From: Dethiobacter sp.
Lineage (GTDB): Bacteria; Bacillota; Dethiobacteria; DTU022; UBA8154
Assembly (NCBI GenBank): GCA_020725665.1
Contig: DYEO01000028.1
Span: forward strand, 718 to 64,717
Length of the DNA: 64,000 bases
Direction of reading: 5' to 3'
In this document: one piece after another, positions 5,279 through 55,920 of the stretch
Layout of the letters: each line of letters starts with the position of its first letter
Numbering within the stretch: the first letter of the stretch is position 1
Made by a program: the position numbers and the translations under genes
Notes under the pieces: model-generated
Told to the model about the DNA's origin: nothing
The model's input: the letters and a program-made list of their open reading frames with translations, nothing else
Database searches by the model: none

Positions 5279-5302
5279 TCTGACTACTGAATTCTGACTA
5301 CG
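5279..5302. repeat. short tandem heptamer repeat TGACTAC (x2, interrupted)
   Basis: tcTGACTACtgaattcTGACTACg in the intergenic gap after the fliS-fliT unit. The same heptamer recurs at 16825-16842 and 55911-55920. Confidence 0.6.
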
Positions 5303-5499
5303 TAAATAAGTTTCAGGGATGAATAAAACCCAGGCCGGATGCTTGAAAAAACCCGGCTTATTTTTTTAATTTATTCTAAAATGGGCAGGAATTGGTAGAT
5401 TTTTGCCGAAAGATTTTAGATTAATATTGGTGGCCATGCTTGGAATACGAAAAAAGATGAAATTTAGGATGAGTAAGTATAAATAAAGGAGGATGAGGC

Positions 5500-5892
5500 A
5501 TGCTCTGGAACGATCAGTTGATGCAGGGCCTGACCCGGGGCCTCGACGCGGCGGCTCTGCGCCAGAAAGTAACGGCCAACAACATTGCCAACTTGAATAC
5601 TCCGGGATTTAAGCGGTCGTACGTCCTTTTCAATGCGGAACTGGATAAGGCCCGGAGCAAACTGCCCCTCGCGCGCACAAATCCCTGCCACTACCCCGGA
5701 CGTCCCGGGGAGGCGGATCCCCGTGTACAGACGGAACGCCATACGTCGCGGCGCACTGACGGGAACAATGTGGATCTGGACCAGGAGATGCTAGACCTGG
5801 TAACCAACCAGTTGCACTATAACGCCCTGATCCAGAGGACCAGTGGACGCCTGGCCGCATGGCGTTATGTGATTACGGAAGGGAGAGGTTAA
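5500..5892 (+). CDS. flgB: flagellar basal-body rod protein FlgB
   Basis: Rod N-terminal motif NNIANLNTPGFKR. A strong SD AAAGGAGGA precedes the ATG. Confidence 0.92.
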   Translation: MLWNDQLMQGLTRGLDAAALRQKVTANNIANLNTPGFKRSYVLFNAELDKARSKLPLARTNPCHYPGRPGEADPRVQTERHTSRRTDGNNVDLDQEMLDLVTNQLHYNALIQRTSGRLAAWRYVITEGRG

Positions 5893-5898
5893 AAAAAG

Positions 5899-6324
5899 AT
5901 GGAGCTTTTTCGCTCTTTTCAAATCAGCGGCTCGGCCCTGACGGCGGAGAAAGTACGCATTGATACGGTGGCCGGCAACCTGGCCAACCTGCAGACGACG
6001 CGTACGGCGGCAGGGGGGCCGTATCGCCGTAAAACGGTAGTCTTTGCTGAAAAGCTGAACAAGGTGCGCAGTGTCCCGCCGGCTTTTCGGGGGTACGGGG
6101 TGCGCGTGGCCTCCGTGGTGGAGGACCCAAACCCCCCGCGCCTGGAGTTTGACCCGGAACACCCCGATGCAAATGAAGAGGGCTTTGTGGCTTATCCGAA
6201 TATCGATATGGCCAAGGAAATGACCGACCTGATTACGGCTTCCCGCTCTTACGAGGCTAATACCACGGCGGTCAATACGGCAAAGAGCATTTACCTGAAA
6301 GCTCTGGAAATCGGCCGCGGCTAA
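5899..6324 (+). CDS. flgC: flagellar basal-body rod protein FlgC
   Basis: SGSALTAEKVRIDTVAGNLANLQTTRT... and conserved C-terminal SRSYEANTTAVNTAKSI. Confidence 0.93.
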   Translation: MELFRSFQISGSALTAEKVRIDTVAGNLANLQTTRTAAGGPYRRKTVVFAEKLNKVRSVPPAFRGYGVRVASVVEDPNPPRLEFDPEHPDANEEGFVAYPNIDMAKEMTDLITASRSYEANTTAVNTAKSIYLKALEIGRG

Positions 6325-6371
6325 ACAGTCATATCCGCTGCCCGGTGACCATTAACCTATTTTACGCATAA

Positions 6372-6686
6372 ATGGGGGAAACGATGATGCAAGTAAATCC
6401 TTATGTTGTGCCCCTGCCTGCGCCGGCGCGGCATGAAAAAGAAGATAACATCACATCCAGCGGGGCTTCCTCTTTTGGCGGCCTTTTAAAGGATGCCCTT
6501 TACAAGGCCAACCAGGAACAACTGCGTGCCGCGGAGGTGACGCAGGAGTTGATATCGGGAAAGATTGAGGATCTGCACCAGTTGATGATTGTAACGGAAC
6601 AGGCAAAGCTCTCCCTGCAGTTGACTGTGCAGGTGACCAGTAAGCTGATCGAGGCCTACCGTGAAATTTCACGCATGCAGGTGTAG
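6372..6686 (+). CDS. fliE: flagellar hook-basal body protein FliE
   Basis: 104 aa with FliE C-terminus (QLMIVTEQAKLSLQLTVQVTSKLIEAYREI). Confidence 0.9.
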   Translation: MGETMMQVNPYVVPLPAPARHEKEDNITSSGASSFGGLLKDALYKANQEQLRAAEVTQELISGKIEDLHQLMIVTEQAKLSLQLTVQVTSKLIEAYREISRMQV

Positions 6687-6706
6687 TCTGATACGAGGTG
6701 CTGCCA

Positions 6707-8278
6707 ATGGCCGGAGATAAAGGAGTATCGCTTGAAATTGTACAGGAGCGCTGGCAGGCGCTGGGAAAGACCCGTCAGCTTGTGATCGTTATTATTGCCG
6801 CCGCCCTTATCGTATCCATCCTGCTGGTCGTGCTGACGCCGCCAAAAACGGAATATGTCACTCTTTATAGCAACCTGGACGCGGCCCAGGCTTCTCCTCT
6901 TGTCCAGTACCTGCGGGAGCGGGGCGTCGAATTTCGTCTTGATGATTTCGGCGCCACGCTCAAGGTTCCGGCAAACATGGCGGACGAGTTGCGTATTGAA
7001 ATGGCGGGCAAGGGTATGCCCTTTGCCCAGGGATTGGGCTTTGAAATCTTTGACGAGGATCAGTTCGGCATTACCGACTTTGAACGGCAGGTTAAATTAC
7101 AGCGTGCTCTGCAGGAGGAATTGCGGCGCACCATCACCTCCCTCGATGCCGTCATGCAAGCCCGTGTACATCTGGCCATCCCCGAACCACGTGTTTTCAT
7201 GAAAGAGCGAACCAGCCCCTCAGCGGCGATTTACCTGAAGCTGAATCCCTTTGTGCCGCTAAAGGAGGAGCAGGTGCGGGGTATTGTTTTTCTCGTGGCT
7301 TCCAGCGTCGAGGACCTCAAACCGGAAAATATTGTGCTCATTGATTCACAGGGCAATATTCTTTACGATGCGGCCAGCAGTGTTGACCCGGTCAGCGCCC
7401 TCGCCGATTCCACTCTCAAACAGCTGGAGGTAAAACGGGCTTTCGAGATGGAACTGGAACGGCGGGTTCAGCATATGCTGGAACGGGTTTTTGGACCGGG
7501 TAAGGTCCTGGCCCTCATTACGGCCAAGATGGACTTTGATGTCCGTGAAACTACAGTGATTACATATGACGAACAGGGCGTGCCCCGCAGCACACAGGTG
7601 ATCGAGGAACGCTTCGAGGGAACGGGACCCGTCATGGGGGAAGTAGGAGAAGCCAATTACCCCGGTTATGTGGGTGTGACTCCCGGCGGTGAGAGCACAT
7701 ATGAACGACGGGAAGAGACCGTCAATTATGAAATAAGCGAAAGCAGCGAGAGGGTGGTCGCTGCTCCGGGGAAACTGCTCAACCTGCACACATCCGTGGT
7801 TGTGGACACGGGGAAAACAACAGTTACAGAGGAGCAAATCGAACAGGTTAATCGCCTTGTTGCCTCTGCTATCGGTTATGATGCGGCGCGAGGCGACCAG
7901 ATCAGCGTGCAGGGCATGAGTTTCGACACGACCTTTGTGGATGAGATGGAAGCGGCCCTGGCCGGCCTGGATCTTGAGCGCCGCCGGAATGAGATGTTTC
8001 AGCTGGCCGTATTGGGGGCTGCAACCCTGTTTTTCCTCATTCTTATGATCAGTGCCCTGCGGCGCCGGCGCCGCATGCGGGAGCGGTTGCTCATTCCCGC
8101 AGGTGAAGGCGCCAGGCTGGATGAACTGCTGGCCGCCGGTATGGCTTTTGAAGAAGAGGTAGTCATTCCCGATTTGACGCCCGGGGAAACACCGCTGGGC
8201 CGTGCCCGCAAGCTGGTAGAGGAGAATCCGGATGTGGCTATCTTCGTGCTCCGTTCCTGGATGGTTGAGGAGTCATAA
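6707..8278 (+). CDS. fliF: flagellar M-ring protein FliF
   Basis: ~520 aa with N-terminal TM, conserved LDAVMQARVHLAIPE, C-terminal TM and FliG-binding tail. Start is ATG 6707 or GTG 6698. Confidence 0.93.
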   Translation: MAGDKGVSLEIVQERWQALGKTRQLVIVIIAAALIVSILLVVLTPPKTEYVTLYSNLDAAQASPLVQYLRERGVEFRLDDFGATLKVPANMADELRIEMAGKGMPFAQGLGFEIFDEDQFGITDFERQVKLQRALQEELRRTITSLDAVMQARVHLAIPEPRVFMKERTSPSAAIYLKLNPFVPLKEEQVRGIVFLVASSVEDLKPENIVLIDSQGNILYDAASSVDPVSALADSTLKQLEVKRAFEMELERRVQHMLERVFGPGKVLALITAKMDFDVRETTVITYDEQGVPRSTQVIEERFEGTGPVMGEVGEANYPGYVGVTPGGESTYERREETVNYEISESSERVVAAPGKLLNLHTSVVVDTGKTTVTEEQIEQVNRLVASAIGYDAARGDQISVQGMSFDTTFVDEMEAALAGLDLERRRNEMFQLAVLGAATLFFLILMISALRRRRRMRERLLIPAGEGARLDELLAAGMAFEEEVVIPDLTPGETPLGRARKLVEENPDVAIFVLRSWMVEES

Positions 8279-8338
8279 TAACTTTTTATTTTAAGCGGGC
8301 GGCTGAGGGCAGCCGCCCCTACGGAGGAGGCGCTCCCC

Positions 8339-9349
8339 TTGCCCAAGGAGGAAAAGCTGAGCGGTAAGCGAAAAGTGGCCATCCTGTTATTGGCTCTGGG
8401 ACCGGATATTGCTTCCCGCCTCTTAAAACAATTTTCCGAACAGGAAATCGAGAACATAACCATGGAGATAGCCAACCTCAACCGTGTCCCCAAGGATTTA
8501 CGTGATGAGATTGCCGGGGAATTTCTCCTGATTGGGCAGGCCCAGCAATATATGCTGGAAGGTGGAGTTGATTATGCCAAGGAAATTCTCGAAAAGACTC
8601 TCGGCCATCATAAGGCGACGGAAATTATCAAGCGGCTGAAAGAACAGGTAAAGGTCAAGCCCTTTACTTTTGTCCGTCATGCCGACCCCAAACAGCTGGT
8701 CAGCCTGATCAGCCAGGAACATCCCCAGACGATCGCCCTGATCCTATCCTACCTGGATGCGTCACAGGCGGCAATGGTTATTTCCGAATTGCCCGGGGAG
8801 ATACGTGCCGATATTGCCCGCCGCATTGCCCTCATGGAACGAACCTCACCGGAAATTTTAAAGCAGGTGGAGGGTGTTCTGCGCGACAGGCTGTCCAGCC
8901 TCTTCCAACAGGACTTTACCCAGGCCGGCGGTGTTGATACTGTAGTGGATATCCTCAACAGTGTGGATCGGGGCACGGAAAAGTTAATCCTGGAAGATCT
9001 GGAAAAGGAAGATGCGGAACTGGCTGACGAAATACGGCAGCGCATGTTCATCTTTGAAGATATCATTACCCTTGATGATGCTTCCATCCAGCGCGTGGTA
9101 CGTGAGGTTGACAGTAAAGACCTGGCTAAAGCACTCAAAGGCGCTAGTGAAGAAGTTAAAGAACGTATCTACCGCAACATTTCCAAGCGGGCTGCGGAGA
9201 TGTTGAAGGAAGATCTGGATTTTATGGGCCCGGTACGCCTGCGCGAGGTGGAAGAATCCCAGCAGCGTATTGTGGGGGTAATCAGGCGGTTGGATGAAGC
9301 CGGGGAAATTATTATTTCCAGGGGTGGAGAAGATGCCATTATCGCCTAA
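8339..9349 (+). CDS. fliG: flagellar motor switch protein FliG
   Basis: 336 aa. Sequence includes KVAILLLALGPDIASRLLKQFSEQEIE and the C-terminal torque-helix region. Confidence 0.93.
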   Translation: MPKEEKLSGKRKVAILLLALGPDIASRLLKQFSEQEIENITMEIANLNRVPKDLRDEIAGEFLLIGQAQQYMLEGGVDYAKEILEKTLGHHKATEIIKRLKEQVKVKPFTFVRHADPKQLVSLISQEHPQTIALILSYLDASQAAMVISELPGEIRADIARRIALMERTSPEILKQVEGVLRDRLSSLFQQDFTQAGGVDTVVDILNSVDRGTEKLILEDLEKEDAELADEIRQRMFIFEDIITLDDASIQRVVREVDSKDLAKALKGASEEVKERIYRNISKRAAEMLKEDLDFMGPVRLREVEESQQRIVGVIRRLDEAGEIIISRGGEDAIIA

Positions 9350-10094
9350 AATTTTGCGCGGTATTGATATCAGAGGTTGGAAAACATATGAGCCCCGGGT
9401 GCCTGAGGAGGGAAAACCCGGGGACGATCTTAAAGAGAACGCATTGATGGAGCCCCAGCTTCCACCACCGCCCACGCGGGAGGAAATTGAAAAGGAGCGG
9501 ACAGAGATCCTGGCGGCGGCCCGGCAGGAGGGAGAGCGCATACGCCGGCAGATCCTGGCAAAAGCAGGCGAGGAAGCGACCGTTCTCCGGGAGAGGGCCA
9601 TTGCGGAAGGTTACGGGGAAGGCTATGCCCGGGGTGAGCAGGAGGCGGAGAAACTGCGGGAAGAAGCGGCGCATACCCTAAAAAGGGCAAAAGAGGAGCA
9701 CCGCAATATGCTTGACGGTGCGGAGGAGGAGATCCTGCGCATCGCCGTCAGCATGGCGGAAAAGCTTGTGCACGTGCAGGTGGAACTGAACGAGGATGTG
9801 ATCCTGGCCATGCTGGTGCGCTGTCTGGAAAGTTTACCCGGGGGGCGCGAGCTGGTGCTGCGTGTCAATCCCCGGGATGAGCAACTCTGCCGCAGCAAGG
9901 GACAAATGCTGCAGGGTTTATTGCGCCGGGATGCCTCCCTGCAGATTGTTGCCGATGCTGATCTGCCAAGTGGAAGCTGCATCGTGGAATCGGAAGAAGC
10001 AGAAGTCGCTTTTCTATTACAAAAAGAACTGGAAATCCTTACTAAAAAACTCCTCGCTTTGGCAGTTGACAGGGGACAAAGGACAATTGGATAA
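9333..10094 (+). CDS. fliH: flagellar assembly protein FliH
   Basis: Glu/Arg-rich coiled-coil N-terminus followed by a FliH C-domain. Overlaps the fliG stop and precedes fliI. Confidence 0.8.
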   Translation: MPLSPKILRGIDIRGWKTYEPRVPEEGKPGDDLKENALMEPQLPPPPTREEIEKERTEILAAARQEGERIRRQILAKAGEEATVLRERAIAEGYGEGYARGEQEAEKLREEAAHTLKRAKEEHRNMLDGAEEEILRIAVSMAEKLVHVQVELNEDVILAMLVRCLESLPGGRELVLRVNPRDEQLCRSKGQMLQGLLRRDASLQIVADADLPSGSCIVESEEAEVAFLLQKELEILTKKLLALAVDRGQRTIG

Positions 10095-10189
10095 ATGGAT
10101 GGTTTGATGTTTCTCCGGCGTGCCGGCACACCGACTTCTGAGCTCTGGCTCGTAGGGGCGGACGACCCTGTCCGCCCGCCTGGTTTGCA

Positions 10190-11560: not shown

Positions 11561-11640
11561 TTCTAATACTCTTTAAAAAATACATTTTTATGGCGAAAAG
11601 AATAATAGAAAAAGGAGGATTCATCCTCCGGTGATTGATT

Positions 11641-16824: not shown

Positions 16825-16842
16825 TGACTACTGACTACTGAA
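16825..16842. repeat. short tandem heptamer repeat TGACTAC x2 (+TGA)
   Basis: tTGACTACTGACTACTGA in the gap between flgE and motA. Confidence 0.6.
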
Positions 16843-19597: not shown

Positions 19598-19627
19598 TTG
19601 CCACGACCATACCGTCCTAAGGTCTTC

Positions 19628-19648
19628 TAACCTCCAACCTCCAACCTC
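19628..19648. repeat. short tandem heptamer repeat (T/C)AACCTC x3
   Basis: TAACCTCCAACCTCCAACCTC in the gap before fliO. Related copies lie at 41788-41808. Confidence 0.6.
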
Positions 19649-22125: not shown

Positions 22126-23310
22126 ATGGCAAAACGAAAATATGGGAACAAGAAACGGAGGCAATGCTCCCTTCCGCCAGCGAACCCCGACCCGCAAGGG
22201 GTGCGCTTGCTTAACCTGCAGCTTTTTGCGGAAGGGGAAGATAAGACGGAGCAGGCCACGCCGCACCGTCTCCGTGAAGCGCGCAAACGGGGCCAGGTGA
22301 TGAAGAGCATGGAGCTGAACGCTGCGATTAACATGGCGGGCATGGCTTTCTTTTTTCTGCTTTTCTGGCCCTTTTTCCAAAACGGCATTTTTGCCATGCT
22401 GCAGCATTTTCTGCGCACCCTTCCGGTGGAAGCAGCCGCGGGGGATCTTCCCATTATGCTGGTGATGCGCCTTTCCCTGCAGCATTACATGAAACTGGTA
22501 CTGCCCTTCCTGTTGGCAGCCTTTTTTACCGGCTTCATCGCCAATGTTATGCAGGTCGGCTTTCTCATCTCTACGGAGGCAATCAAACCCCAGCTCAACC
22601 GCCTCAATCCCGTGGAAGGCTTCAAGCGCATTCTTTCCCGTCGTTCCCTGTTTGAGCTGGTTAAGTCCGTGCTCAAGGTGGTCATTTTCGCCTTGGTTTG
22701 CTACTTCTATCTGCGCAGCCAGCTTCAGCCCATGCTCCTTTTACTCGGTCAGGAGCCGGGGGTAACGGCCAGGCTGCTGGGGAAAATCCTGGTGGGCCTG
22801 GCTTTCCGCGTGGCTGCTGTCTTTTTCATGTTGGCGCTTATCGATTTCATTTACCAGCGTCACGAGTACCTGAAAAACCTGCGCATGTCCCGCCGTGAGA
22901 TCAAGGATGAGTATAAGCAGTTGGAGGGCGATCCCCATGTGCGCTCACGCCTGCGTGAGCGGCAGCGGGCAATCGCTCGGGAGCGCAGCCTGGCCCGGGT
23001 GCCTGAGGCCACTGTTGTGGTTACCAACCCCACGGAATTGGCCGTGGCGCTGCGCTATAACGAAAAGGAGGACGGGGCCCCCCTGGTGCTGGCCAAGGGG
23101 GCCGGGGTCCTGGCCCGGCGTATCCGCGAGATAGCCCGGGATTACCGCATCCCTGTTATCACGAACCCGCCCGTGGCCCGCTTACTCTACCGCGAGGTGG
23201 AGATTGGCGGGGAGATTCCCGTCGAACTTTACCAGGCAGTTGCGGAGATCCTCGCCATGGTTTACCGCCTGCAGGAAAAGGAGCGGCTGCGCCGCCGCCG
23301 TGCCCTGTAG
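22126..23310 (+). CDS. flhB: flagellar export apparatus protein FlhB
   Basis: N-terminus EDKTEQATPHRLREARKRGQV. Autocleavage motif NPTE present. 4 TM helices. Confidence 0.95.
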   Translation: MAKRKYGNKKRRQCSLPPANPDPQGVRLLNLQLFAEGEDKTEQATPHRLREARKRGQVMKSMELNAAINMAGMAFFFLLFWPFFQNGIFAMLQHFLRTLPVEAAAGDLPIMLVMRLSLQHYMKLVLPFLLAAFFTGFIANVMQVGFLISTEAIKPQLNRLNPVEGFKRILSRRSLFELVKSVLKVVIFALVCYFYLRSQLQPMLLLLGQEPGVTARLLGKILVGLAFRVAAVFFMLALIDFIYQRHEYLKNLRMSRREIKDEYKQLEGDPHVRSRLRERQRAIARERSLARVPEATVVVTNPTELAVALRYNEKEDGAPLVLAKGAGVLARRIREIARDYRIPVITNPPVARLLYREVEIGGEIPVELYQAVAEILAMVYRLQEKERLRRRRAL

Positions 23311-23336
23311 GGAACGACGCCCCCGTCGTTCCCTAC
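23307..23336. repeat. GC palindrome GTAGGGAACGACG-ccc-CGTCGTTCCCTAC overlapping the flhB stop
   Basis: 13-bp perfect stem. It shares the GTAGGG/CCCTAC ends of the REP-like family. Confidence 0.6.
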
Positions 23337-29540: not shown

Positions 29541-29565
29541 GGGCGGATATGGAATCCGCCCCTAC
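29541..29565. repeat. REP-like GC palindrome (GGGCGGAT-atgga-ATCCGCCCCTAC)
   Basis: 8-bp perfect stem plus CTAC tail. Confidence 0.6.
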
Positions 29566-31266: not shown

Positions 31267-31337
31267 CGATTTTCGACTTTTGACTTTCGACATTCGACTT
31301 TATTCAGTCCCGACTTTCAACTTTTGACCTTTGACTT
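31267..31337. repeat. array of ~8 tandem TTTYGAC-like heptamers
   Basis: cgaTTTTCGACTTTTGACTTTCGACATTCGAC...CGACTTTCAACTTTTGACCTTTGACtt fills the 212-nt gap between flgG and fliM. Confidence 0.65.
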
Positions 31338-31461
31338 AAATCCCTGTCCAGTACAATTTTTCAGGGATTTTTGATTATTTATACTAAGGAGGAAAACTTC
31401 TTACTTTTGCATTCCTTTCTTTTGTGTTAAGATAAAGGCAGCCGGCATAAAACTGGAACAG

Positions 31462-37473: not shown

Positions 37474-37816
37474 TGATACAGCGTTCATGCGCATGACCCT
37501 GCGTAACGTCCTGGAAAAAAACGGTTACGAAATAGCGGGTGAAGCAGAGGATGGCCAGCAGGCTGTGGACAAATATGGAATGATCAAGCCTGATCTGGTG
37601 ACGATGGATATCACTATGCCCAATATGGATGGTATTACGGCGATTAAGTTGATTATGAAGCAAGACCCGAACGCCAAGATTGTTGTTGTCAGTGCCATGG
37701 GTCAAAAAGCCCTTGTGATCGAGGCACTGAATTCCGGGGCAAAGGATTTTATTGTCAAGCCTTTTCAACCTGACCGCATTGTAGAAGCGCTGCAAAAAGT
37801 TTCAAGCACATCATAA
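37448..37816 (+). CDS. cheY: chemotaxis response regulator CheY
   Basis: 122 aa REC domain (VLITDDTAFMR, phospho-acceptor in VTMDITMPNMDG, KDFIVKPF). TTG start overlaps the cheA end. Confidence 0.92.
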   Translation: MAKKVLITDDTAFMRMTLRNVLEKNGYEIAGEAEDGQQAVDKYGMIKPDLVTMDITMPNMDGITAIKLIMKQDPNAKIVVVSAMGQKALVIEALNSGAKDFIVKPFQPDRIVEALQKVSSTS

Positions 37817-37820
37817 TAAT

Positions 37821-37880
37821 CGAATGTCAAAAGTCAAATGTCAAAAGAGAACAGTAAACCTTAGACCTTAGACCTTAGAC
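37821..37880. repeat. two tandem heptamer arrays: GTCAAAW-type x3 (rc of TTTTGAC) and CCTTAGA x3
   Basis: cgaATGTCAAAAGTCAAATGTCAAAAG ... CCTTAGACCTTAGACCTTAGAC in the 84-nt gap between cheY and cheC. Confidence 0.65.
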
Positions 37881-40136: not shown

Positions 40137-40923
40137 TTGAAAAACGAATGGGACTATAGTGAATTTAAAGTGGCTTTTTTTCGACGCACCGGGCTGGATT
40201 TGAACCTTTATAAAGACAAGCAGATGGAAAGGCGTATCCGCCAGCTGATGCAGCGGGAAAAAAAACCCGGTTTTAAGGAGTTCTATGATTACCTTGCTTC
40301 GTCAACGACAGCCATGACTTTTTTTTTTCAATTACCTTACGATCAACACTTCAGAATTTTTTCGTGATGAGAAGATTTACAGCCTGCTGGAGGCGGAGAT
40401 TTTTCCGGAAATTATCCATAAAATTACAGGGAAGCTGATTGCCTGGAGTGCCGGTTGCTCCATTGGCGCAGAGCCGTATACGGTGGCGATTATCCTGGAT
40501 CGATTAAAAGTCCTTTCCCGGTCGGAGATCCACGCTACCGACATGGATGATAAAGCCCTGCTGGCGGCGCAGCAAGGCTGCTACAACCAGAAACAGTTGG
40601 GCAAGACACCATCCCATGTGGTGGAAAAATATTTCACCCGGGAAAAGGATATCTACTGTGTGAAGCCCGAAATCCGCAAAGCAGTCCATTACCGGCGGCA
40701 TAACCTGCTTACGGATGACCCTATCGCCAAATGCCACATCATTTTCTGCCGTAATGTTTTTATTTACTTTAAACCGGAAACGCAGCATTTTCTCCTGGAG
40801 CGTTTTTCCCGGGTCCTCAACCCCGGGGGATTCATGGTTATTGGCTCGGCCGAGTACATCGGCAACCCGTCACAATACTCCTTCAGCAAACGCTACAACA
40901 CCATTTTCCAAAAAAACAGTTGA
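40137..40923 (+). pseudogene. cheR: chemotaxis methyltransferase CheR, interrupted by +1 frameshift in a T10 homopolymer
   Basis: N-part in frame 0 (…ASSTTAMTFFF then stop at 40367). The rest continues in frame +1 from 40330: NYLTINTSEFFRDEKIY...LIAWSAGCSIGAEPYTVAIIL...VFIYFKPE. Nine Ts instead of ten would restore TAMTFFFNYLTINTSEFFRD. Confidence 0.85.
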
Positions 40924-41665
40924 CAATTGACGTATGCCCAGCCAAAGGCTGCTTTGCCGACGACCTAATCGTACTCATCAACTGGCATCCGTCAAACAAT
41001 TGGCTCGTGAAAGCAGTAACCCGCAGAATCAAGGAAGAACTGGAGAAGCTTCAGGTAGAATTGAACCAGGAAAAGAGCAAAGTGGCAGACCTCACCAAAG
41101 GGGAAAGCTTCATCTTCCTGGGCTTTGAGTTCCGTAGAATAAGGAGCAGAAGTGGAAAATGGAGACCCTACTACACACCAAAACAGGAGAAGCGCAAGAA
41201 GCTAATCACGGAACTTCAGGAGATATTCAGCAAGTATACTTCGCAGCCCGTGGGGAAAATAATTGAGGAAATAAATCCGAAACTACGGGGATATTGCAAC
41301 TACTATCGCATCGGACAATCGGCGCGTTGTTTCAGCTACATCAGGCAATGGGTGATGAAGAAAGTATGCAGGCACCTGCAAAGAGCAAGAGGACGCTCGG
41401 GGTTTGGCTGGAAAAGGTGGAGCTCGGCGTATATCTATGAAGTGCTCGGACTGTATAAAGACTACAAGCTGAAAAGATATATCCCGGCAGCCGGACCGGC
41501 AGAGAGGACACATAAACCTTGTTATGAAGCCAATAGGTAAGCCCGGTGCGGGAAAACCGCACGCCGGGCTTGAAGAGGCGGAAATAGAGTAAGGCAGGAT
41601 ATTGAGGCACTGTCAACCGAAAGGGACAGCAAACAGACTAGGTCTGCCTAAGCCACTACGCCAGT
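40920..41665 (+). mobile_element. 5'-truncated group II intron remnant: RT from motif 5 onward, maturase (X) domain, and domain V
   Basis: ORF 40920-41540 carries FADDLIVLI (the RT YADD box) and a maturase region (PKLRGYCNYYRIGQSARCFSYIRQWVMKKVCRHL). 41539-41571 folds as canonical domain V: AGC triad, 7-bp plus 5-bp helices, 2-nt CG bulge on the 3' strand, purine-rich loop. No domains I-III or RT motifs 0-4 are present upstream, because cheR occupies that position. Confidence 0.75.
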
Positions 41666-41703: not shown

Positions 41704-41787
41704 GTAGGGGCGGGTCTCTGCGCCCGCCCGTGTAGGGGCGGGTCTCTGCGCCCGCCCGTGTAGGGGCGGCTGCTCACAGCCGCCCGC
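41704..41787. repeat. three tandem REP-like GC palindromes (two identical 27-nt units plus a variant)
   Basis: tGTAGGGGCGGGtctctgcgCCCGCCCg occurs twice, followed by tGTAGGGGCGGCTGctcaCAGCCGCCCgcc. Confidence 0.7.
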
Positions 41788-41808
41788 CAACATCCAACCT
41801 CTAACATC
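41788..41808. repeat. short tandem heptamer repeat CAACATC/CAACCTC/TAACATC
   Basis: Three heptamers directly after the REP triplet and before the tautomerase RBS. Confidence 0.55.
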
Positions 41809-46117: not shown

Positions 46118-46145
46118 GGAAGTTGGAAGTTAGAAGTTGGAAGGT
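46118..46145. repeat. short tandem heptamer repeat GGAAGTT x4 (degenerate)
   Basis: GGAAGTTGGAAGTTAGAAGTTGGAAGGT. Abuts a REP element. Confidence 0.6.
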
Positions 46146-46146: not shown

Positions 46147-46176
46147 TGTAGGGGCGGACGACCCTGTCCGCCCGCG
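46147..46176. repeat. REP-like GC palindrome identical to the copy at 10152-10180
   Basis: tGTAGGGGCGGACgaccctGTCCGCCCgcg. Confidence 0.65.
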
Positions 46177-48150: not shown

Positions 48151-48159
48151 ATTGCGCTG

Positions 48160-49593: not shown

Positions 49594-49700
49594 TTGCCAA
49601 AAAATCTTTTCTTTTAATGGCTTTTCTGGTAATGTTATAATAATAAGGACAATGAAAAAAAGGCTTTCAGAAATTATATTATTATGGAGGAGGGAAGAAA

Positions 49701-50099
49701 ATGGCTGCACAGGATTCACTGGACCGGATCATTGATGTATTGCCTGAAAATTTGAAGTGCCTCGTCATGAAAGAAGTGCATGACAAAGAGAATTTTCTGG
49801 CGGTGGTGAAAGGGATTAAGGGTGAAGCTTTGGCCGTTACAGACGAAGGGGTGCATATGGTCAAGGAATCAGACCGGTGCAGTTTCTTCCCCTTCAGCGC
49901 CATTGCCTCCATAAAAATCTACCGTGAACTGCGTCGCGGTAAGTTTGAACTGATCCTGCGGGGAGGAAAAAGACCCGAACAGGGATTAATGATGGGGTAC
50001 GAGGCTGATCCCGCTGAGCATGTGGTCAACTTTCCCTTTGCCAAGATGGCCATGTTCAAGAAAGTTGGCGAAATGATCTGGGAGCGAATAACGGCTTAA
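49701..50099 (+). CDS. hypothetical protein (132 aa)
   Basis: GGAGGAGGG SD then ATG. No recognisable motif. Confidence 0.5.
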   Translation: MAAQDSLDRIIDVLPENLKCLVMKEVHDKENFLAVVKGIKGEALAVTDEGVHMVKESDRCSFFPFSAIASIKIYRELRRGKFELILRGGKRPEQGLMMGYEADPAEHVVNFPFAKMAMFKKVGEMIWERITA

Positions 50100-50129
50100 T
50101 TTTTTAAGATAGCTGGTAACCGTTTTTTT

Positions 50130-50156
50130 GTAGGGGCGAGGCATGCCTCGCCCGCT
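50130..50156. repeat. REP-like GC palindrome (GGGCGAGGCATGCCTCGCCC, 20-nt perfect palindrome with GTAGG head)
   Basis: Lies upstream of thrC. Confidence 0.6.
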
Positions 50157-50199
50157 CATATTTTTAACAGCATTTAATCAGCAGGAAAGGAGTCAGCAG

Positions 50200-51717
50200 A
50201 TGTTGTATATCAGCACGCGGGGAAATCACGAACCTGTCAGTGCCTCCAGGGCAATTCTGCTGGGCATGGTGCCGTCCGGCGGCCTCTTTGTGCCCGACTC
50301 CATTCCCGTGCTCGAGGAAGGGCAGCTCCGTGCCCTGCAGGGCCAGAGTTATACCGGCGTGGCACAGCAGATTGTCAGCCCCTACCTGGATGATTACAGC
50401 GGGGCGGAGATTGACGCCTGCCTGGCCTGCGCCTACAGCAGCGGGAATTTCAGCCATCCCCTGATTGCCCCCCTGTACCGTCTGGATGACGGCATTCACC
50501 TGCTTGAGCTGTGGCACGGACCCACCGCCGCCTTCAAGGATATGGCCCTGCAGCTCATGCCCCACCTCCTCTCCCGGGCCCTGGGGAAGGAAGGGCAGCG
50601 GGATGAACTGGTCATCCTCGTGGCTACCTCCGGCGACACGGGCAAGGCGGCCCTGGAGGGGTTCAGTGATGTTCCCGGTATCCGCATTATTGTTTTTTAC
50701 CCGCACGGCGGCGTGAGCCGGGTCCAGGAGCTGCAGATGACCACCACCAGCGGCGCCAACACCAGCGTGGTGGCAGTCCGCGGCAATTTTGACGACTGCC
50801 AGGGCGCGGTAAAGGATGTTTTTTCCGACCGGGAACTGGAGCAATGCCTGAAGAAAAAGGGTTTTACCCTCTCCTCGGCCAACTCCATTAATTGGGGCAG
50901 GCTGTTGCCCCAGATCGTCTATTATTTCTGGGCCTGGTTGCAGTTGACGCAAGGCGAAGGAGAAAGGGGCGCCACCCTGGAACGGGTTAATATTGTCGTT
51001 CCTACCGGCAATTTTGGCAATATCCTGGCTGCCTGGTATGCCTGGCGTATGGGCCTCCCTGTCAAAAAGCTGATTTGTGCTTCTAACGAAAACAGGGTGC
51101 TCACTGATTTTTTCCAAACAGGCATCTACGATAGCAACCGGGAATTCCGGCGTACCAGCAGCCCCTCCATGGATATTCTCATCTCCGGCAACCTGGAGCG
51201 CCTTCTTTTTGCTGTGAGTGGCAGCGACGGGGAGCGTACGCAAGGCTGGATGGATGAGCTGAAAAAAACAGGTGTCTTCCAGGTTGACGCGGCCACGCGG
51301 CAGGCCCTGGACCGGATCATTTATGCCGGCTGGGCCGGGGAAAGAGAAACCATGAAGACGATTCGGGAGACATTTACAAAATATGACTATCTTTTGGATA
51401 CGCACACGGCGGTGGGCTTGAGCGTATACGAGCAATACAGGGCGGCGACCGCGGATAACACCCCTGCAATTATTGCCGCCACCGCCAGCCCCTTTAAATT
51501 CAGCGCCAGTGTCCTGGCGGCGCTGCGGGGGGATGATATGTGGCTGCAGGATTTGGACGAATTCTCTATTCTTACCGAGCTGAGCCGGCTGAGTGGAGTT
51601 TCCGTTCACCCCGCGCTGCAGGACCTGCAAGGCAAAACAGTAAGGCACAGGCTTGTATGCGGCAAAGGGGAGATCAGCCAAAAAATCATGGAAATTCTCA
51701 AATATCAGGGACGCTAA
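50200..51717 (+). CDS. thrC: threonine synthase ThrC (long form)
   Basis: MLYISTRG N-terminus. PLP lysine motif (FKDMALQ) and a ~505-aa long-type threonine synthase. Confidence 0.9.
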   Translation: MLYISTRGNHEPVSASRAILLGMVPSGGLFVPDSIPVLEEGQLRALQGQSYTGVAQQIVSPYLDDYSGAEIDACLACAYSSGNFSHPLIAPLYRLDDGIHLLELWHGPTAAFKDMALQLMPHLLSRALGKEGQRDELVILVATSGDTGKAALEGFSDVPGIRIIVFYPHGGVSRVQELQMTTTSGANTSVVAVRGNFDDCQGAVKDVFSDRELEQCLKKKGFTLSSANSINWGRLLPQIVYYFWAWLQLTQGEGERGATLERVNIVVPTGNFGNILAAWYAWRMGLPVKKLICASNENRVLTDFFQTGIYDSNREFRRTSSPSMDILISGNLERLLFAVSGSDGERTQGWMDELKKTGVFQVDAATRQALDRIIYAGWAGERETMKTIRETFTKYDYLLDTHTAVGLSVYEQYRAATADNTPAIIAATASPFKFSASVLAALRGDDMWLQDLDEFSILTELSRLSGVSVHPALQDLQGKTVRHRLVCGKGEISQKIMEILKYQGR

Positions 51718-51820
51718 AGGAGCCTTATTAATCTTCATAAGTTTTTGTTGCGGCACCCTGCCTGCACCCCCGGGGCTATCTCTTAACCTCAAGCCCCGGA
51801 CCTCCTGTATTATTAATAAA

Positions 51821-51985
51821 GCCCTGCTACAGGTGAAAAATCTACAGGTTACTTTTACTACACTGCAGGGAACGGTCAGGGCCGTTGATACCCTTGATGT
51901 AAACATGGACAATAAGGACCGCCTGGCGCTGCTGGGAGAGTGGGGCTGTGGAAAAACCGTATTTCTCCATTCCTTAATGGGATAA
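51821..51985 (+). pseudogene. N-terminal fragment of an Opp/Dpp-type ABC transporter ATPase
   Basis: ALLQVKNLQVTFTTLQGTVRAVDTLDVNMDNKDRLALLGEWGCGKTVFLHSLMG then stop. It has a degenerate Walker A and no rest of the ABC domain. Confidence 0.55.
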
Positions 51986-52026
51986 CGCTGCTTGATACTT
52001 ACTTCAAAGCAAAGGAGTTTAAAGAA

Positions 52027-52896
52027 TTGTGTAAAGTTACAAGGACCGAAGATCAGAATTTAGAGCTTTTTGACGGCGCCTTTTGGGCGGATGCCTGGGC
52101 CCGGGCCCGCCAAAAATCATCCCTTTACCGGGAAGGATACGACGAGTCAAGCTGGAATGCTTTTTGGAACCAGTACGCGGGCACTTACCTGAAGGTCAAC
52201 CAGGCCCTGGAGGAACATCTCCGGACCCTGGTCTCCTCCTGGAGAGAGGAAGGGCTGGTGGGGCCTTCCTCGCGTGTTTTGGATATCGGCTGCGGTCCAG
52301 GCGCCTATGCCCTTCCCCTGGCCCGGGAGGTCCGGGAAGTGGTGGCGCTGGACACGGCCCCGCAGATGCTGGAGACACTGGCACAGGCGGCCCGTCAGCA
52401 GGAACTGAGTAATGTCGTTCCCTTTCAGGGTCACTGGGAAAAGGTGAATTTTGACAGGGAATTTGACCTGGTGCTGGCTGCCATATCACCAGCCATTTAT
52501 AATTACGAGACGCTGATGAAAATGAACGAGGCATCCCGCGGCAGTTGCATACTCATCAGCTACCGGCACTACCACGCACCCCTGCGGGAAATACTCTGGC
52601 AGAAACTGATGAAGGAAAAGCTGATAAGCCGGGCCTTTGAGATCACTTACCCTTTTAATATCCTTTATCAGGAAGGATTCAACCCCAATTTGCGGTTTAT
52701 GGAGCAGGATTACTGTTATACTGAAAAAACGGCGGTCATACGGGATAATTTCCGTGCTTATTTCCGCATATTCGGTAAAGATGAAAACAGCGTGGACAGG
52801 ACCCTGGACGAAATTTTCAACGGCTCGGCACAAGATGGAGAGATTACAGAAAAGGTGTCATCCTGTCTGGCCGTGATGTGGTGGCAAGCCCGGTGA
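52027..52896 (+). CDS. class I SAM-dependent methyltransferase
   Basis: Motif I VLDIGCGPGAYALPLA. Start set at the TTG 9 nt after AAGGAG; the open frame extends back to 51940. Confidence 0.7.
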   Translation: MCKVTRTEDQNLELFDGAFWADAWARARQKSSLYREGYDESSWNAFWNQYAGTYLKVNQALEEHLRTLVSSWREEGLVGPSSRVLDIGCGPGAYALPLAREVREVVALDTAPQMLETLAQAARQQELSNVVPFQGHWEKVNFDREFDLVLAAISPAIYNYETLMKMNEASRGSCILISYRHYHAPLREILWQKLMKEKLISRAFEITYPFNILYQEGFNPNLRFMEQDYCYTEKTAVIRDNFRAYFRIFGKDENSVDRTLDEIFNGSAQDGEITEKVSSCLAVMWWQAR

Positions 52897-53239
52897 AACG
52901 GCCGGGGTTTATTATACTTCTGGTGTACCTGCAAAAAACCGCCCGTTTTGACCTGGGGATGTCTATCCAGTACGGCCGCCCTGTTTATCCCCTGGTTATG
53001 GACAAGTTAAGAGAACGGGACACATATTCCAAAGCGAAACGTAACAGGATCCCGCATAGATGAAGATCGGCCCCGGGGCTCCGCCCTTTAAAACAACTTG
53101 AAGAAGACGGTAGGGTTAAAATTTACTTGAAGCCGGAACGCTGCCGCTTTATGTGTTGTAATGCCGCGCAACGGCCTGCGGAGCTTTCTCCAGGCGGCCT
53201 GGCATATCTTTTTTAAACGATTAGTGGAAATCTTTGGTG

Positions 53240-53268
53240 TTGTCAAAAGTCCGGAAGTTTATTATAAT
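53240..53268 (+). promoter_or_regulatory. sigma-A-type promoter (TTGTCA, 17-nt spacer, TATAAT)
   Basis: Near-consensus hexamers upstream of the pcrB-like gene. Confidence 0.5.
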
Positions 53269-53306
53269 TAATTTGAAAGAGGAGACTAAAACGGGGAAGA
53301 TTGATT

Positions 53307-54038
53307 ATGAGCATTGCCCGGTACCTGAGAGAGAAAATCAACGGGGGGACCGTGCATATTACCCTTATTGATCCAATGAAGCAATCACCTGAGGTTGCCG
53401 GTCGCCTTGCCCTCACCGCCCAAGAGGTGGGCAGTGACCTTATTCTGGTATTGGGTGTAAGCGGCCTGGCCCAGAGAAACCTCCTGGATACCACTATATC
53501 CATTCGTGAAAAGACATCCATACCACTTGTTTACTCCCCCGCCGGGGCGGAGGCCCTTTGTTTTTCCTTCGATGCCTTTCTCTTTTCATGCCTGCTTAAT
53601 TCCCGTAATGCTGGCTATACCTGCGGCGGGCAGTCGCAGGCGGCCGTTTTGCTTAAAAGAATGGAAGTGGAAACCATCCCCGTCGGCCTGGTGATGATAG
53701 AGCCCGGTTTAAAAACGGGAGATAACAACATTGATCTGGTCCCCCGTGACAATCACTGGCAGGCGGCCGGTTATGCCGCGGCGGCGGAACTTTTCGGCAT
53801 GAGCTATGTTTACCTGGAGGCAGGGCCAAATTCAGCCCAGCCTATCTCTGTCGCCATGATCCGTGCGGTGAAAAAAGAGATTTCCATTCCCCTGATTGTG
53901 GGTGGAGGCATTCGTACCGCCGTAGATGCTCGCCGTGTCCGGCAGGCCGGCGCTGATGTGGTTGTAACGGGAACGGTAATCGAGAATGCAGGTTACCGGG
54001 AAAGACTCCGTTCCATCCTCAGCGCGCTGAAGGATTAA
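53307..54038 (+). CDS. pcrB: (hepta/geranylgeranyl)prenylglyceryl phosphate synthase, PcrB family
   Basis: TIM-barrel GGGP synthase family motifs (IPLIVGGGIRT; GADVVVTGT). Confidence 0.75.
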   Translation: MSIARYLREKINGGTVHITLIDPMKQSPEVAGRLALTAQEVGSDLILVLGVSGLAQRNLLDTTISIREKTSIPLVYSPAGAEALCFSFDAFLFSCLLNSRNAGYTCGGQSQAAVLLKRMEVETIPVGLVMIEPGLKTGDNNIDLVPRDNHWQAAGYAAAAELFGMSYVYLEAGPNSAQPISVAMIRAVKKEISIPLIVGGGIRTAVDARRVRQAGADVVVTGTVIENAGYRERLRSILSALKD

Positions 54039-54072
54039 TATATACAAAAGCTGTGATTATACCCGCCCGGTA

Positions 54073-54099
54073 AACCTGACCCTGCGGTCAGGTTTTAGC
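54073..54099 (+). terminator. rho-independent terminator
   Basis: AACCTGACC-ctgc-GGTCAGGTTTT. Confidence 0.65.
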
Positions 54100-54135
54100 T
54101 TGGAAAATCACCCGCGGCGGAAAGGAGCAGGGAAA

Positions 54136-54630
54136 ATGAAAAGAGTTTTGTTGTTTCTGCTAACGGCGGCTCTCCTTTTGAGTAGTTCCGGCTGTACTGT
54201 TGTGGAAGAGACTCATGCCTTCGCTGAAAGTTTTCCCGACAAGCACTGGGAGAAAGTTTGGGTAATCAAAGAGCGGGAAACGGCCATAGCGATGGATGAG
54301 GAGCAGGTTGTCCTGGAGGGTCACTGCCTGATTCACTACGTTGGCGAGGAACCGGCGCATGATGTCAGCATCATCATCAGAAGCCCCCTCACCTATGGTT
54401 TTATCGATGATCAAATGACCCGACATTACGGAACCGTCAACCCGGGCGACAAACTTGAATATAAGTTGCATGCCGAGTATGCCGGCTGGCAGGATAAAGT
54501 ACCTGTTTATATCTTTGCCGACAAGATAAAGGACGATTACCTCGGAAACTTTTATGTAGGGATAAGCTGGCGCTACGGGGACTATACGTATAACAAGAAG
54601 TTTTTCGACTGGTCCGGTGAGAAACACTGA
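54136..54630 (+). CDS. hypothetical lipoprotein
   Basis: Signal peptide with lipobox (LLLSSSGC). Confidence 0.6.
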   Translation: MKRVLLFLLTAALLLSSSGCTVVEETHAFAESFPDKHWEKVWVIKERETAIAMDEEQVVLEGHCLIHYVGEEPAHDVSIIIRSPLTYGFIDDQMTRHYGTVNPGDKLEYKLHAEYAGWQDKVPVYIFADKIKDDYLGNFYVGISWRYGDYTYNKKFFDWSGEKH

Positions 54631-54643
54631 TGACTCCTGAGTA

Positions 54644-55177
54644 TCAGAGGTAATAAACCAGGCCAAAAATAGCACCGGCCCCGACAAAGAGCAGGGGATG
54701 CAAGCGGGTATAGAGGAGCAGCAGAAAACAGACCGCGGCAAAGAGAGCGCCGGGCAGATCCACGATGGCGCTTTTTCCCACTACTACGGCAGCCAGACCC
54801 ATAAGGGCGATTACGGCAGGATGAATTCCTGCCAGAACTTTTTTCAGCCTGGGGTTATGGGTGAAACAGGAGATGAGACGCGTTGCCGGCAGGGCAATGA
54901 TCAGGGAAGGGAAGACAACCCCCAGTGTGGCGACTGCAGCCCCGGTTATGCCGGCTACCCGGTAACCGGTGAAAGTGGCGGCATTAATCGCCACCGGCCC
55001 CGGGGTCATCTCCGCCACTGCAATAATATCGATAAACTCCGCACTGCTTAACCAGCGGTTGACCTGCACTATTTCATATTCGATGAGGGCCAGCATGGTA
55101 TAGCCTCCCCCGAAGCCAAAAAAGCCGATTTTCAGGTAAGATACAAACAACTGCCATAACAGGACAAACATCCGCAC
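54644..55177 (-). CDS. chrA: chromate transporter (CHR family) short-chain protein
   Basis: GFFGFGGGYTMLAL motif. Paired with the adjacent second half-size CHR protein. Confidence 0.85.
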   Translation of the reverse strand: MRMFVLLWQLFVSYLKIGFFGFGGGYTMLALIEYEIVQVNRWLSSAEFIDIIAVAEMTPGPVAINAATFTGYRVAGITGAAVATLGVVFPSLIIALPATRLISCFTHNPRLKKVLAGIHPAVIALMGLAAVVVGKSAIVDLPGALFAAVCFLLLLYTRLHPLLFVGAGAIFGLVYYL

Positions 55178-55178
55178 C

Positions 55179-55778
55179 CTACTCCTTTACTTCCTTTGCC
55201 TCGACCTGCTGCAGCGGTAAAAAGAGGCCTGCCAACGCCCCGCCGATAATCACGAACAGAGGATGAATATTAAAAACAATGAGCCCTCCCAGGAAGAGGG
55301 TAAAAAGCAACAGGGAGGGTCGGTTCTTTAATACGGCACGCCCCAGTTTAACAGCGGAAGCGGCAATCAGTGCCGTCACCGCCGGCCGGATCCCCTGGAA
55401 TACCCCGTGAGCCAGGGGGTTTTCCCTGTACTGCCATAAGAAGACGACAACGGCCAGTATGAGTAAAAAAGAGGGAAGGACGGCTCCCAGCAGGGAGCAC
55501 AGGCTGCCCTTCAGACCCTGCAGGCGATAGCCGGAGATGACGGAGAGGTTGACGATAATCGGCCCGGGAACAGATTGGGCCAGGACAAGGCAATCCACAA
55601 ATTTATGGTCGTCCATCCACCTTTTCTTCTCCACCAGTTCCGCCTGGAGCAGGGGAACCATGGCGACACCGCCCCCAAATGTAAAGGCCCCGATTTTTAA
55701 AAACATAAAAAAAAGCTGGAAAAGGGAAGCATCCGGCCCTGCCTTTTTAAATCCCTCCAAGCGCAAATCATCATCCAT
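55179..55778 (-). CDS. chrA: chromate transporter (CHR family) short-chain protein
   Basis: GAFTFGGGVAMVPLL motif. Together with 54644-55177 it forms a split ChrA pair. Confidence 0.85.
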   Translation of the reverse strand: MDDDLRLEGFKKAGPDASLFQLFFMFLKIGAFTFGGGVAMVPLLQAELVEKKRWMDDHKFVDCLVLAQSVPGPIIVNLSVISGYRLQGLKGSLCSLLGAVLPSFLLILAVVVFLWQYRENPLAHGVFQGIRPAVTALIAASAVKLGRAVLKNRPSLLLFTLFLGGLIVFNIHPLFVIIGGALAGLFLPLQQVEAKEVKE

Positions 55779-55891
55779 GAGGTCGCAACTCCTTTAACAA
55801 ATACACCTATCTTACATATACATACCGGATTCGGCAAGTGCGCCTATATGCCATACCAGCAAGTCTTCAAATGCTTTCGCTAGTTCTCTCG

Positions 55892-55920
55892 TTTTGACTT
55901 TTGACTTCTGGCTACTGATT
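55892..55920. repeat. short tandem heptamers TTTTGAC x2 followed by a TGGCTAC/TGATTCC relative of TGACTAC
   Basis: gTTTTGACTTTTGACttcTGGCTACTGATT in the divergent intergenic region. Confidence 0.55.

Follow-up and report, generated by a model that had tools for sequence, protein, structure and literature searches.

The 64,000-nucleotide stretch of Dethiobacter sp. DNA studied here (assembly GCA_020725665.1, contig DYEO01000028.1, positions 718 to 64,717; called the window below, position 1 being its first letter) carries a large cluster of flagellar and chemotaxis genes, and units of seven nucleotides are repeated in tandem at many of its intergenic sites. Why do repeats of this one length recur there with several different sequences, and do they control the genes that they adjoin? 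An initial annotation, made by reading the sequence, had listed most of these heptamer arrays, placed them at the seams of a flagellar super-operon, and proposed either slipped-strand loci or iterated protein-binding half-sites. Here, we compared the window with shuffled sequence, with related genomes and with phage contigs. Our best reading is that the arrays are a genome-wide, lineage-specific trait of an uncultured, Pelotomaculum-related clade of Bacillota, and we give a probability of about 0.62 to the view that they are slippage-driven heptanucleotide simple-sequence repeats (SSRs), of the class known as long SSRs of 5-11 nt (LSSR(5-11)) or short tandemly repeated repetitive sequences (STRR), without a locus-specific role.

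Period 7 is the sole enriched repeat period of the window

Tandem repeats were counted in the window and in dinucleotide-preserving shuffles. When perfect runs of at least two copies plus 2 nt were required, period 7 gave 5 loci, compared with 0.1 in the shuffles, and periods 8-11 gave none. A second, imperfect criterion of three copies with at most three mismatches, which was also applied to relatives, gave 10 loci of period 7 against 1.7 +/- 1.2 in the shuffles, and no locus of periods 8-12 in the window. Periods 4 and 5 were at or under expectation, while period 6 was enriched inside genes only, because of codon periodicity. Apart from this effect within genes, period 7 is the only repeat period that is enriched.

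The arrays are concentrated outside genes. On the corrected gene map, 9.1% of the window is non-coding, and 9 of the 11 listed sites lie in this fraction (P = 2e-8). For the window and the relatives together the count is 24 of 26 arrays, with about 9.5% of the DNA non-coding (P = 8e-23). The intergenic excess over both coding DNA and shuffled sequence, on which the initial annotation had made its proposal depend, is present. Single units were not enriched in non-coding DNA (7/106, or 6.6%, vs 9.1%), indicating that the feature is the tandem arrangement and not the word itself. After the arrays had been masked, the lag-7 signal of the non-coding DNA was 0.266, compared with 0.275 at lag 6 and 0.261 at lag 8. 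This lack of a residual lag-7 signal indicates that the arrays are discrete and short-lived and do not decay in place; the idea that the remaining spacers are decayed arrays was rejected accordingly.

The arrays fill whichever spacers exist

All heptamer arrays of the earlier list were confirmed in the sequence, with offsets of at most a few bases, and Tandem Repeats Finder reported 9 period-7 arrays in the window. The coordinates below refer to the plus strand, on which the arrays are read unless the minus strand is named. Two arrays lie in 3′ regions ahead of terminator-like hairpins. The first, TGACTAC-TGAATTC-TGACTAC (5281-5301, 21 nt), belongs to the family that we call CTGA-type; it starts 14 nt 3′ of the stop codon of a 122-aa fliS-adjacent gene, which had been named fliT and gave no Pfam match, and it stands 5′ of a terminator-like hairpin with a T-run (5332-5359). 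The second, in the flgG 3′ region (31270-31338), consists of TTTYGAC units in two blocks, 31270-31300 and 31312-31338, which are 2 nt out of phase and split by a decayed 11-nt stretch. It had been described as about 8 units at 31267-31337, and about 8-9 were found; a terminator-like hairpin (31338-31372) is directly joined to its 3′ end.

Four arrays occupy intercistronic spacers inside the fla/che operon. TGACTAC x2.4 (16825-16841) is separated by 70 nt from the flgE stop and by 34 nt from the motA ATG; the array first reported at 16826 is real and starts 1 nt earlier. YAACCTC x3 (19626-19648), in the fliN-fliO spacer, ends 9 nt 5′ of the fliO ATG. GTCAAAW x3 (37826-37847), which is the TTTYGAC family in opposite orientation, begins 9 nt after the cheY stop, and a perfect AGACCTT x3.3 (37858-37880) ends 20 nt 5′ of the cheC start. 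Divergent spacers hold two further arrays: YAACTTC x3.9 on the minus strand (46118-46144; GGAAGTT on the plus strand), 14 nt 5′ of the start of a major facilitator superfamily (MFS) gene, and TTTTGAC x2.3 followed by CTGGCTACTGA, a degenerate TGACTAC-type unit (55892-55918), between a chromate-transporter gene and the gene at 56040. Another array, YAACMTC x3 (CAACATC, CAACCTC, TAACATC; 41788-41808), follows a triplet of repetitive extragenic palindromic (REP) hairpins and ends 23 nt 5′ of the ATG of a tautomerase gene. A perfect ACAGTTG x2.4 (59926-59942), absent from the earlier list, overlaps the stop codon of an amino-acid permease gene at convergent gene ends. Two lesser items of that list were not above chance: TTGACAATTGAC at the cheR stop (40920) is one of 58 comparable lag-7 stretches in the window, and the reverse-complement fragment CTAAGGTCT at 19617 is an isolated 9-mer, of which 3.4 matches are expected.

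The surroundings do not single out the flagellar genes. Pfam upheld the gene calls flgB, flgE, motA, fliN, fliO, flgG, fliM, cheY, cheC, MFS and serA. The phrase transcription-unit gaps suits only the arrays at 5281 and 31270, which precede terminator-like hairpins, and is too narrow for the several arrays inside the fla/che operon. Three of the 10 arrays lie in the non-flagellar 22 kb, at a density about equal to that of the flagellar 42 kb, and arrays are as dense beside housekeeping genes (serA, chromate transporter, permease). Given this similar density, the seams of the super-operon are where spacers happen to be, and the link to them is incidental, not a functional association. The arrays fill whichever spacers exist.

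Close relatives differ in array presence and copy number

The nearest cultured relative of the organism is Pelotomaculum thermopropionicum (FliI 67% identical). Compared with the 10 arrays in the 64 kb of the window, a sister species (ERZ22146367:_89, here L085; FliM 91%) has 6 arrays in 42 kb, GCA_007122565.1 has 5 in 21 kb, and ERZ27301263 has 2, plus 2 imperfect ones, in 16 kb. The relatives' arrays stand between called genes in 15 of 15 cases, and three relatives use the same unit families as the window (TGACTAC/TGAATTC/TGACTCC, TTTYGAC and YAACNTC), mostly in other spacers. There are no arrays in 33 kb of ERZ6863929 / ERZ6863697, whose proteins are 88-90% identical, or in 21 kb of a relative at 75% identity, and P. 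thermopropionicum has a single, chance-like array within fliE in 21 kb. As a control we used 80 flagellar loci of other bacteria (1.52 Mb), taken from the FlhA matches listed (<=58% identity). These loci hold 17 period-7 arrays vs 2 of neighbouring period, and 11 of the 17 fall in four loci with units of their own. The heptamer-array trait is lineage-specific and patchy.

Most arrays lack an orthologue even between species whose flagellar proteins are 82-91% identical. The spacer of the 5281 array is without an array in L085, L087 and L092, and holds a related array in L088. In the flgG-fliM spacer of L081 and L083 the terminator hairpin is conserved and no array is present. The GTCAAAW array at 37826 is lacking in L081, L083 and L091, the AGACCTT array at 37858 is not present in relatives, and the cheY-cheC spacer measures 84 nt in the window vs 30-58 nt, array-free, in relatives. 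At orthologous sites, copy number differs and the units are perfect. TGACTAC 5′ of motA occurs x2.4 in the window and x4.4, perfect, in the sister species (L085 16631-16667), and both arrays end 34 nt before the ATG. CAACCTC 5′ of fliO occurs x3 in the window and as a single unit in the sister species, and CTGAATT before the fliG Shine-Dalgarno (SD) sequence occurs x1 in L088 and x4 in the sister species. Copy number thus varies between relatives at three orthologous spacers, which supports the earlier suggestion of slipped-strand loci resembling variable-number tandem repeats. Neither FliK nor a 33-nt anchor from motA gave any match when metagenomes were scanned. The MotA search led to a single assembly, GCA_040753375.1 (contig JBFMEO010000010.1, 145.5 kb, labelled Bacillota bacterium), in which the stretch is identical to the window.

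Two side observations concern repeats elsewhere. L088 carries a period-8 array, AAAGTTGG x3 to x4, in its fliK>flgD spacer (8335-8367), the only clear non-heptamer array that we saw in the clade. Inverted heptamer-array pairs were seen in other lineages (L007 9440-9625, L079 7040-7170, L087 19076-19273); they form long imperfect stems, down to -89 kcal/mol, from the lineage-specific units CTGAACC, AAAGGTA and GGTAGCA.

Taken together, tandem 7-nt units beyond chance, a period-7 excess, a mostly intergenic position and copy-number variation between relatives were all found, and these are the marks of the heptanucleotide LSSR/STRR class. Since intergenic, variable heptanucleotide SSRs are known from the literature, we assigned the window arrays to this class. 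Under slippage, arrays would start from single-unit seeds, grow and shrink in place through slipped-strand mispairing at replication, and be quickly lost. They would persist only where a frame-breaking 7-nt step is harmless: in the gap from a stop codon to the next SD sequence, in a 3′ region ahead of a terminator, or in a spacer between divergent or convergent genes. They would have no locus-specific regulatory role in flagellar expression, and any effect would be generic, such as that of an unstructured, often stop-codon-rich stretch before the next ribosome-binding site.

A small repertoire of units recurs across species and in phage contigs

Several points weigh against slippage as the whole explanation. 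Slippage from random seeds predicts neither a small unit repertoire common to loci, species and phyla nor tight adjacency to REP hairpins, and both were observed. It also gives no reason for 7 rather than 5, 6 or 8. Its direct signature is length heterogeneity within a population, and the copy-number evidence here is between species. Finally, the arrays may have a generic role in translation or mRNA handling, as they often end 9-18 nt before a start codon.

The first of these points was put in numbers by sorting 24 arrays of the clade into families. The CTGA-type family (TGACTAC, TGAATTC, TGACTCC, TGAATAC, TGAGTGC) comprises 7 arrays in 4 genomes, TTTYGAC 7 arrays in 2 genomes, YAACNTC 4 arrays in 2 genomes, and CTTGCTT 2 arrays; GGTAGCA forms an inverted pair, and two units are singletons. 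Pairs of arrays with at least 6/7 identity number 44; the expectation is 7.1 and none of 300 samples exceeded 16, indicating that random seeding does not account for the restricted repertoire.

We then searched IMG/VR for exact x3 arrays; chance alone would give far less than one match for each 21-mer. The CTGA-core units TGACTAC, TACCTGA and CATCTGA gave 41, 17 and 8 loci, while units of the same composition without CTGA gave 7 (TAGCACT), 5 (TCCATAG) and 0 (ACATGCT), a comparison of three units with three in IMG/VR only. TTTTGAC gave 19 loci and its control TTCTGTA gave 35. The 41 TGACTAC loci, with GC from 0.40 to 0.67, contain 119 period-7 arrays vs 4 of period 8, and 85% of the arrays are outside open reading frames (ORFs). 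Their orientation is sense in 28 cases vs antisense in 19, and the usual end is 9-18 nt 5′ of the next start codon. TGGCTAC, TGACTCC and TGAATTC accompany TGACTAC in these loci as they do in the window, which is partly expected because they are one-mismatch neighbours. The TGACTAC-type family recurs across phyla and in phages. One IMG/VR contig, L109 (uncultivated viral genome 3300033887_000116), is a bona fide phage (GC 61%) that encodes terminase and portal proteins; it holds ten heptamer arrays in 12 kb, including TGGCTAC/TGACTAC x11, TGAGTGC/TGAATGC x7 and TGCTAAT x5. The only named relative of its portal protein comes from a Candidatus Korobacteraceae (Acidobacteriota) metagenome-assembled genome (MAG).

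A bolder explanation, to which we give rather low odds, is that the arrays are not passive microsatellites but the product or preferred substrate of a sequence-specific, cross-phylum machinery that steps 7 nt. Candidates would be a single-stranded DNA-processing system of the REP type, with its REP-associated tyrosine transposase (RAYT), or a protein with a 7-nt footprint. If it exists, such machinery would account for the recurrence of the CTGA core in this Bacillota clade, in Geobacter MTYCTGA, nearly so in Beggiatoa TAACTGA, and in phage contigs, and likewise for the abutment of REPs and arrays and for whole close lineages with or without arrays.

The arrays are predicted to be unstructured and fit a binding protein only in part

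Bacillus CspB binds heptanucleotides such as GTCTTTT, one mismatch from GACTTTT. The arrays could be pictured as iterated sites of a single-stranded RNA- or DNA-binding protein, of the cold-shock-domain or S1 type and with about 7 nt per domain, that serves a global post-transcriptional or translational network; MacGregor proposed such a network for the TAACTGA repeats (PMC4679880). We regard this as unlikely here. It would fit the strict period of 7, the restricted unit families and the position of arrays just 5′ of the SD sequence or start of motA, fliO, the tautomerase gene and the MFS gene, which the IMG/VR arrays echo. It would also fit the fact that CTGA-core units are more array-prone than their same-composition controls, and reporter assays in Nostoc give a hint that heptamer repeats affect expression (bioRxiv 10.1101/2022.06.06.494920). 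However, the arrays run in both orientations, with TTTYGAC sense and antisense in one operon and the mixed orientations in IMG/VR, and they also lie in 3′ regions and at convergent gene ends. Moreover, non-coding DNA shows no excess of single units, close species do not keep the arrays at the same positions, and the relative at 88-90% identity has no array at all; the same three facts speak against the iterated protein-binding half-sites of the initial annotation.

Structure was looked for in several ways. Folding of the arrays with their downstream leaders gave no significant structure (z -2.0 to +1.2), and the arrays are predicted to be unstructured, as a single-strand-binding protein would favour. 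Rfam covariance models at the gathering score and a tRNA scan each gave 0 matches in the window. A hairpin formed by pairing between the GTCAAAW and AGACCTT arrays was dismissed, as its -8.5 kcal/mol is no better than in shuffles, and pairing of YAACNTC with the next SD sequence is weak (z -1.3 and -2.0, n = 3). A three-frame stop cassette was also considered; it suits the TGACTAC and AGACCTT units and misfits YAACNTC and GTCAAAW, so the idea is not general.

Arrays are physically coupled to REP hairpins in this clade

The window has its own REP family, a GTAG-headed hairpin of the form GTAGGGGCGG-N6-CCGCCC, which occupies many intercistronic spacers of the flagellar operon. Its members lie at 2012-2037, 2120-2145, 8297-8322, 10152-10177, 29541-29565, 41704-41785 (x3), 46148-46173 and 50130-50153. 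The statement that two arrays abut REP hairpins proved correct: the last hairpin of the plus-strand tandem triplet at 41704-41785 is 2 nt from the 41788 array, and the plus-strand hairpin GTAGGGGCGGACGACCCTGTCCGCCC at 46148-46173 is 3 nt from the array at 46118-46144. The sister species has a different REP family, GTAGGGAACGGTC-N3-GACCGTTCC. We tested the association on four loci with 14 REP loci by re-placing the REPs randomly in non-coding DNA in 5000 permutations. Five of the 14 REP loci are within 5 nt of an array, compared with 0.18 expected, and none of the 5000 permutations reached five; within 50 nt the count is 7/14 vs 1.38 expected (P = 0.0004). In the sister species each of the four REPs has an array no more than 46 nt away. 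One REP sits inside the loop of another, and three GGAACGG-type REPs share a GTCRAAA context with the same relative orientation. Arrays and GTAG-headed REP hairpins are physically coupled in this clade.

Two spacers are worth describing for their own sake. The fliE>fliF spacer of the sister species (L085 6350-6480) is 162 nt long vs 11 nt in the window. It contains, in order, a GTAGGGAGCGACG hairpin in the loop of a GGAACGG hairpin, a GACTTTK array and a second GGAACGG hairpin, and is a composite of nested small mobile elements. In the flhB-flhA spacer of the window (23307-23336) there is a perfect double-headed palindrome, GTAGGGAACGACGCCCCCGTCGTTCCCTAC, whose stem is related to the sister-species REPs (GTAGGGAACGG...) but not to those of the window.

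These findings raise the possibility that small mobile hairpins, namely GTAG-headed REPs moved by a RAYT-type transposase or by another agent, create the arrays as a by-product or use them as a landing pad. Hairpins might prefer to insert into arrays, or stalling at or processing of hairpins might yield adjacent 7-nt duplications. Besides the adjacency itself, the ancestral spacers are suggestive: an array-free relative has minimal fliF>fliG and flgF>flgG spacers of 15 nt each, and in these same spacers one species has a REP hairpin and another a heptamer array. Elhai et al. are said to have described, in 2008, small dispersed hairpin repeats embedded in Nostoc heptamer arrays. Nevertheless, about 16 of 21 arrays are without a nearby REP and 7 of the 9 window REP loci without a nearby array, and the hairpin adjacency in the IMG/VR set is not significant (2/28 vs 0.44 expected, P = 0.07). 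In L087 and L088, arrays are present while REPs are few or absent, so that strict co-occurrence of REPs and arrays at the level of the genome was rejected. The flanks of the window REPs are not conserved, and heptamers as a fixed flank of the REP were rejected. No RAYT-type transposase was found among the window proteins scanned, and IS200/IS605-type transposition, as is generally known, makes no target duplication. The arrays themselves have no palindrome and in this differ from REPs and REPINs; it is the neighbouring hairpins that have the GTAG head and the imperfect palindrome. An origin of the arrays through mobile hairpins consequently seems to us improbable, and slippage remains the preferred explanation, with the REP coupling as a solid observation beside it.

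Phase variation and operator arrays are poorly supported

Flagella are classic targets of phase variation, and the arrays might be contingency loci whose copy number switches or tunes motility and chemotaxis genes. The copy-number differences between species just 5′ of motA, fliO and fliG are what such loci would display. But the arrays lie in spacers, neither inside ORFs nor between promoter elements, and a sigma-70 promoter scan found no array between -35 and -10 elements on the sense strand. They are equally dense beside serA, the chromate transporter and the permease, the organism is an environmental anaerobe and not a host-adapted pathogen, and a 7-nt unit is atypical of known contingency loci, which use units of 1-5 nt (PMC4692102). 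We consider this explanation very improbable. The only array-related matches of the promoter scan and of a terminator scan run with it are on the minus strand at 37810-37844, where the reverse complement of GTCAAAW makes -35-like TTGACA/TTGACT with -10-like partners; these putative antisense promoters toward cheY are pattern matches only.

That the arrays are Spo0A (0A-box) or other double-stranded DNA operators of the flagellar operon, a resemblance pointed out for the TTTYGAC units, is hardly credible: TTTCGACA in the 31270 array does hold one exact reverse-complement 0A box, the one exact TGTCGAA in non-coding DNA (31286), but the match occurs in only 1 of about 25 TTTYGAC-family units, 4 of the 5 exact boxes in the window are in coding DNA, this array is absent in L081 and L083 and arrays in general are not conserved in relatives, and contiguous 7-bp units, rotating about 240 degrees each, would be ill-suited to dimeric binders of double-stranded DNA. 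Annotation should treat these sites as neither flagellar operators nor Spo0A boxes.

Other features of the window

The cheR gene (40137-40923) is split into two ORFs by a frameshift near 40340-40370, with the N-terminal domain and the methyltransferase domain in different frames, while relatives have an intact 260-aa CheR. Either the gene is a pseudogene or the MAG assembly has a homopolymer error here. At the cheR stop begins a truncated, 206-aa group II intron reverse transcriptase/maturase (40920-41540) that retains the end of RVT_1 and GIIM, and synteny with the relatives ends at this maturase; Rfam gave no match to a group II intron RNA beside it. A 13-nt direct repeat, ATTAGAAGCATCT x2.4 (62523-62553), is located 15 nt 5′ of the SD sequence of an AMP-binding enzyme gene (62568-) and may be a direct repeat of the operator type. 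The left edge of the flagellar cluster has what looks like a toxin-antitoxin module, in which the gene of a PIN-domain protein (405-875) overlaps a small upstream ORF (206-466).

Comparison with known heptamer systems

Heptanucleotide repeats have been known in cyanobacteria since 1990, when Mazel reportedly described the STRR heptamers CCCCAGT, TTGGTCA and CAACAGT of heterocystous species. In Nostoc 7120 the repeats are TTTTGAA and GACYAAT (bioRxiv 10.1101/2022.06.06.494920). As in the window, several families occur per genome, in intergenic DNA and often near start codons or promoters. Some units are alike, TTTTGAA resembling TTTTGAC, and TGACCAA/GACYAAT resembling TGACTAC, but none is identical, and the cyanobacterial arrays belong to another phylum and can be much longer (up to tens of copies).

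The class as a whole was surveyed by Mrazek, Guo and Shah (2007). As this survey is relayed in PMC4679880, the long SSRs of many prokaryotes are most often heptamers. As relayed there and in PMC4692102, LSSR(5-11) share with the window a dominant period of 7, a mostly intergenic position and a sporadic phylogeny, and polymerase slippage is the proposed origin. The window arrays are short, at 2-9 units, unlike the repeats of the survey so reported, and the richest genomes that PMC4679880 names are those of Burkholderia, cyanobacteria, actinobacteria and Xanthomonas, in contrast to the Bacillota here. We found no report of heptamer arrays in Bacillota in the literature searched. Across accounts of other bacteria, heptanucleotide repeats are intergenic, variable in length between close relatives and sometimes present as inverted pairs (PMC4679880, PMC4692102, PMC2700814, bioRxiv 10.1101/2022.06.06.494920).

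Three further systems bear on the units themselves. The TAACTGA repeats of marine Beggiatoaceae, some cyanobacteria and Bacteroidetes (MacGregor 2015, PMC4679880) are intergenic, have 2-6 copies and often lie just 5′ of start codons. They have the CTGA core in common with the CTGA-type units of the window and keep the same unit across phyla. Beggiatoaceae use essentially a single unit with a strong forward bias (PMC4679880), whereas several families in both orientations occur here, and the unit TAACTGA itself was not seen in our arrays, which places them outside that network. Geobacter metallireducens has heptanucleotide elements of 4-5 tandem copies at many loci, GGACCGG x4 and MTYCTGA x5 (PMC2700814). 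The latter, annotated as 'class 3 global regulator sites', is the same word as CTGAMTY, which covers TGAATTC and TGACTCC; these elements were annotated as regulator sites or RNA elements from sequence only, and some are within genes. The GGGAATC/GGGGAYT repeats of Xanthomonas and Nostoc (PMC4692102) show an intergenic excess, variation of length and sequence in the same spacer between close relatives, and some inverted pairs; their units are G-rich and quadruplex-capable, whereas the units here are not G-rich. To these systems the present locus adds a statistically solid physical link of heptamer arrays to REP hairpins, and a Bacillota clade whose array-bearing and array-free syntenic relatives make it a clean comparative system for the gain, loss and copy number of heptamer arrays.

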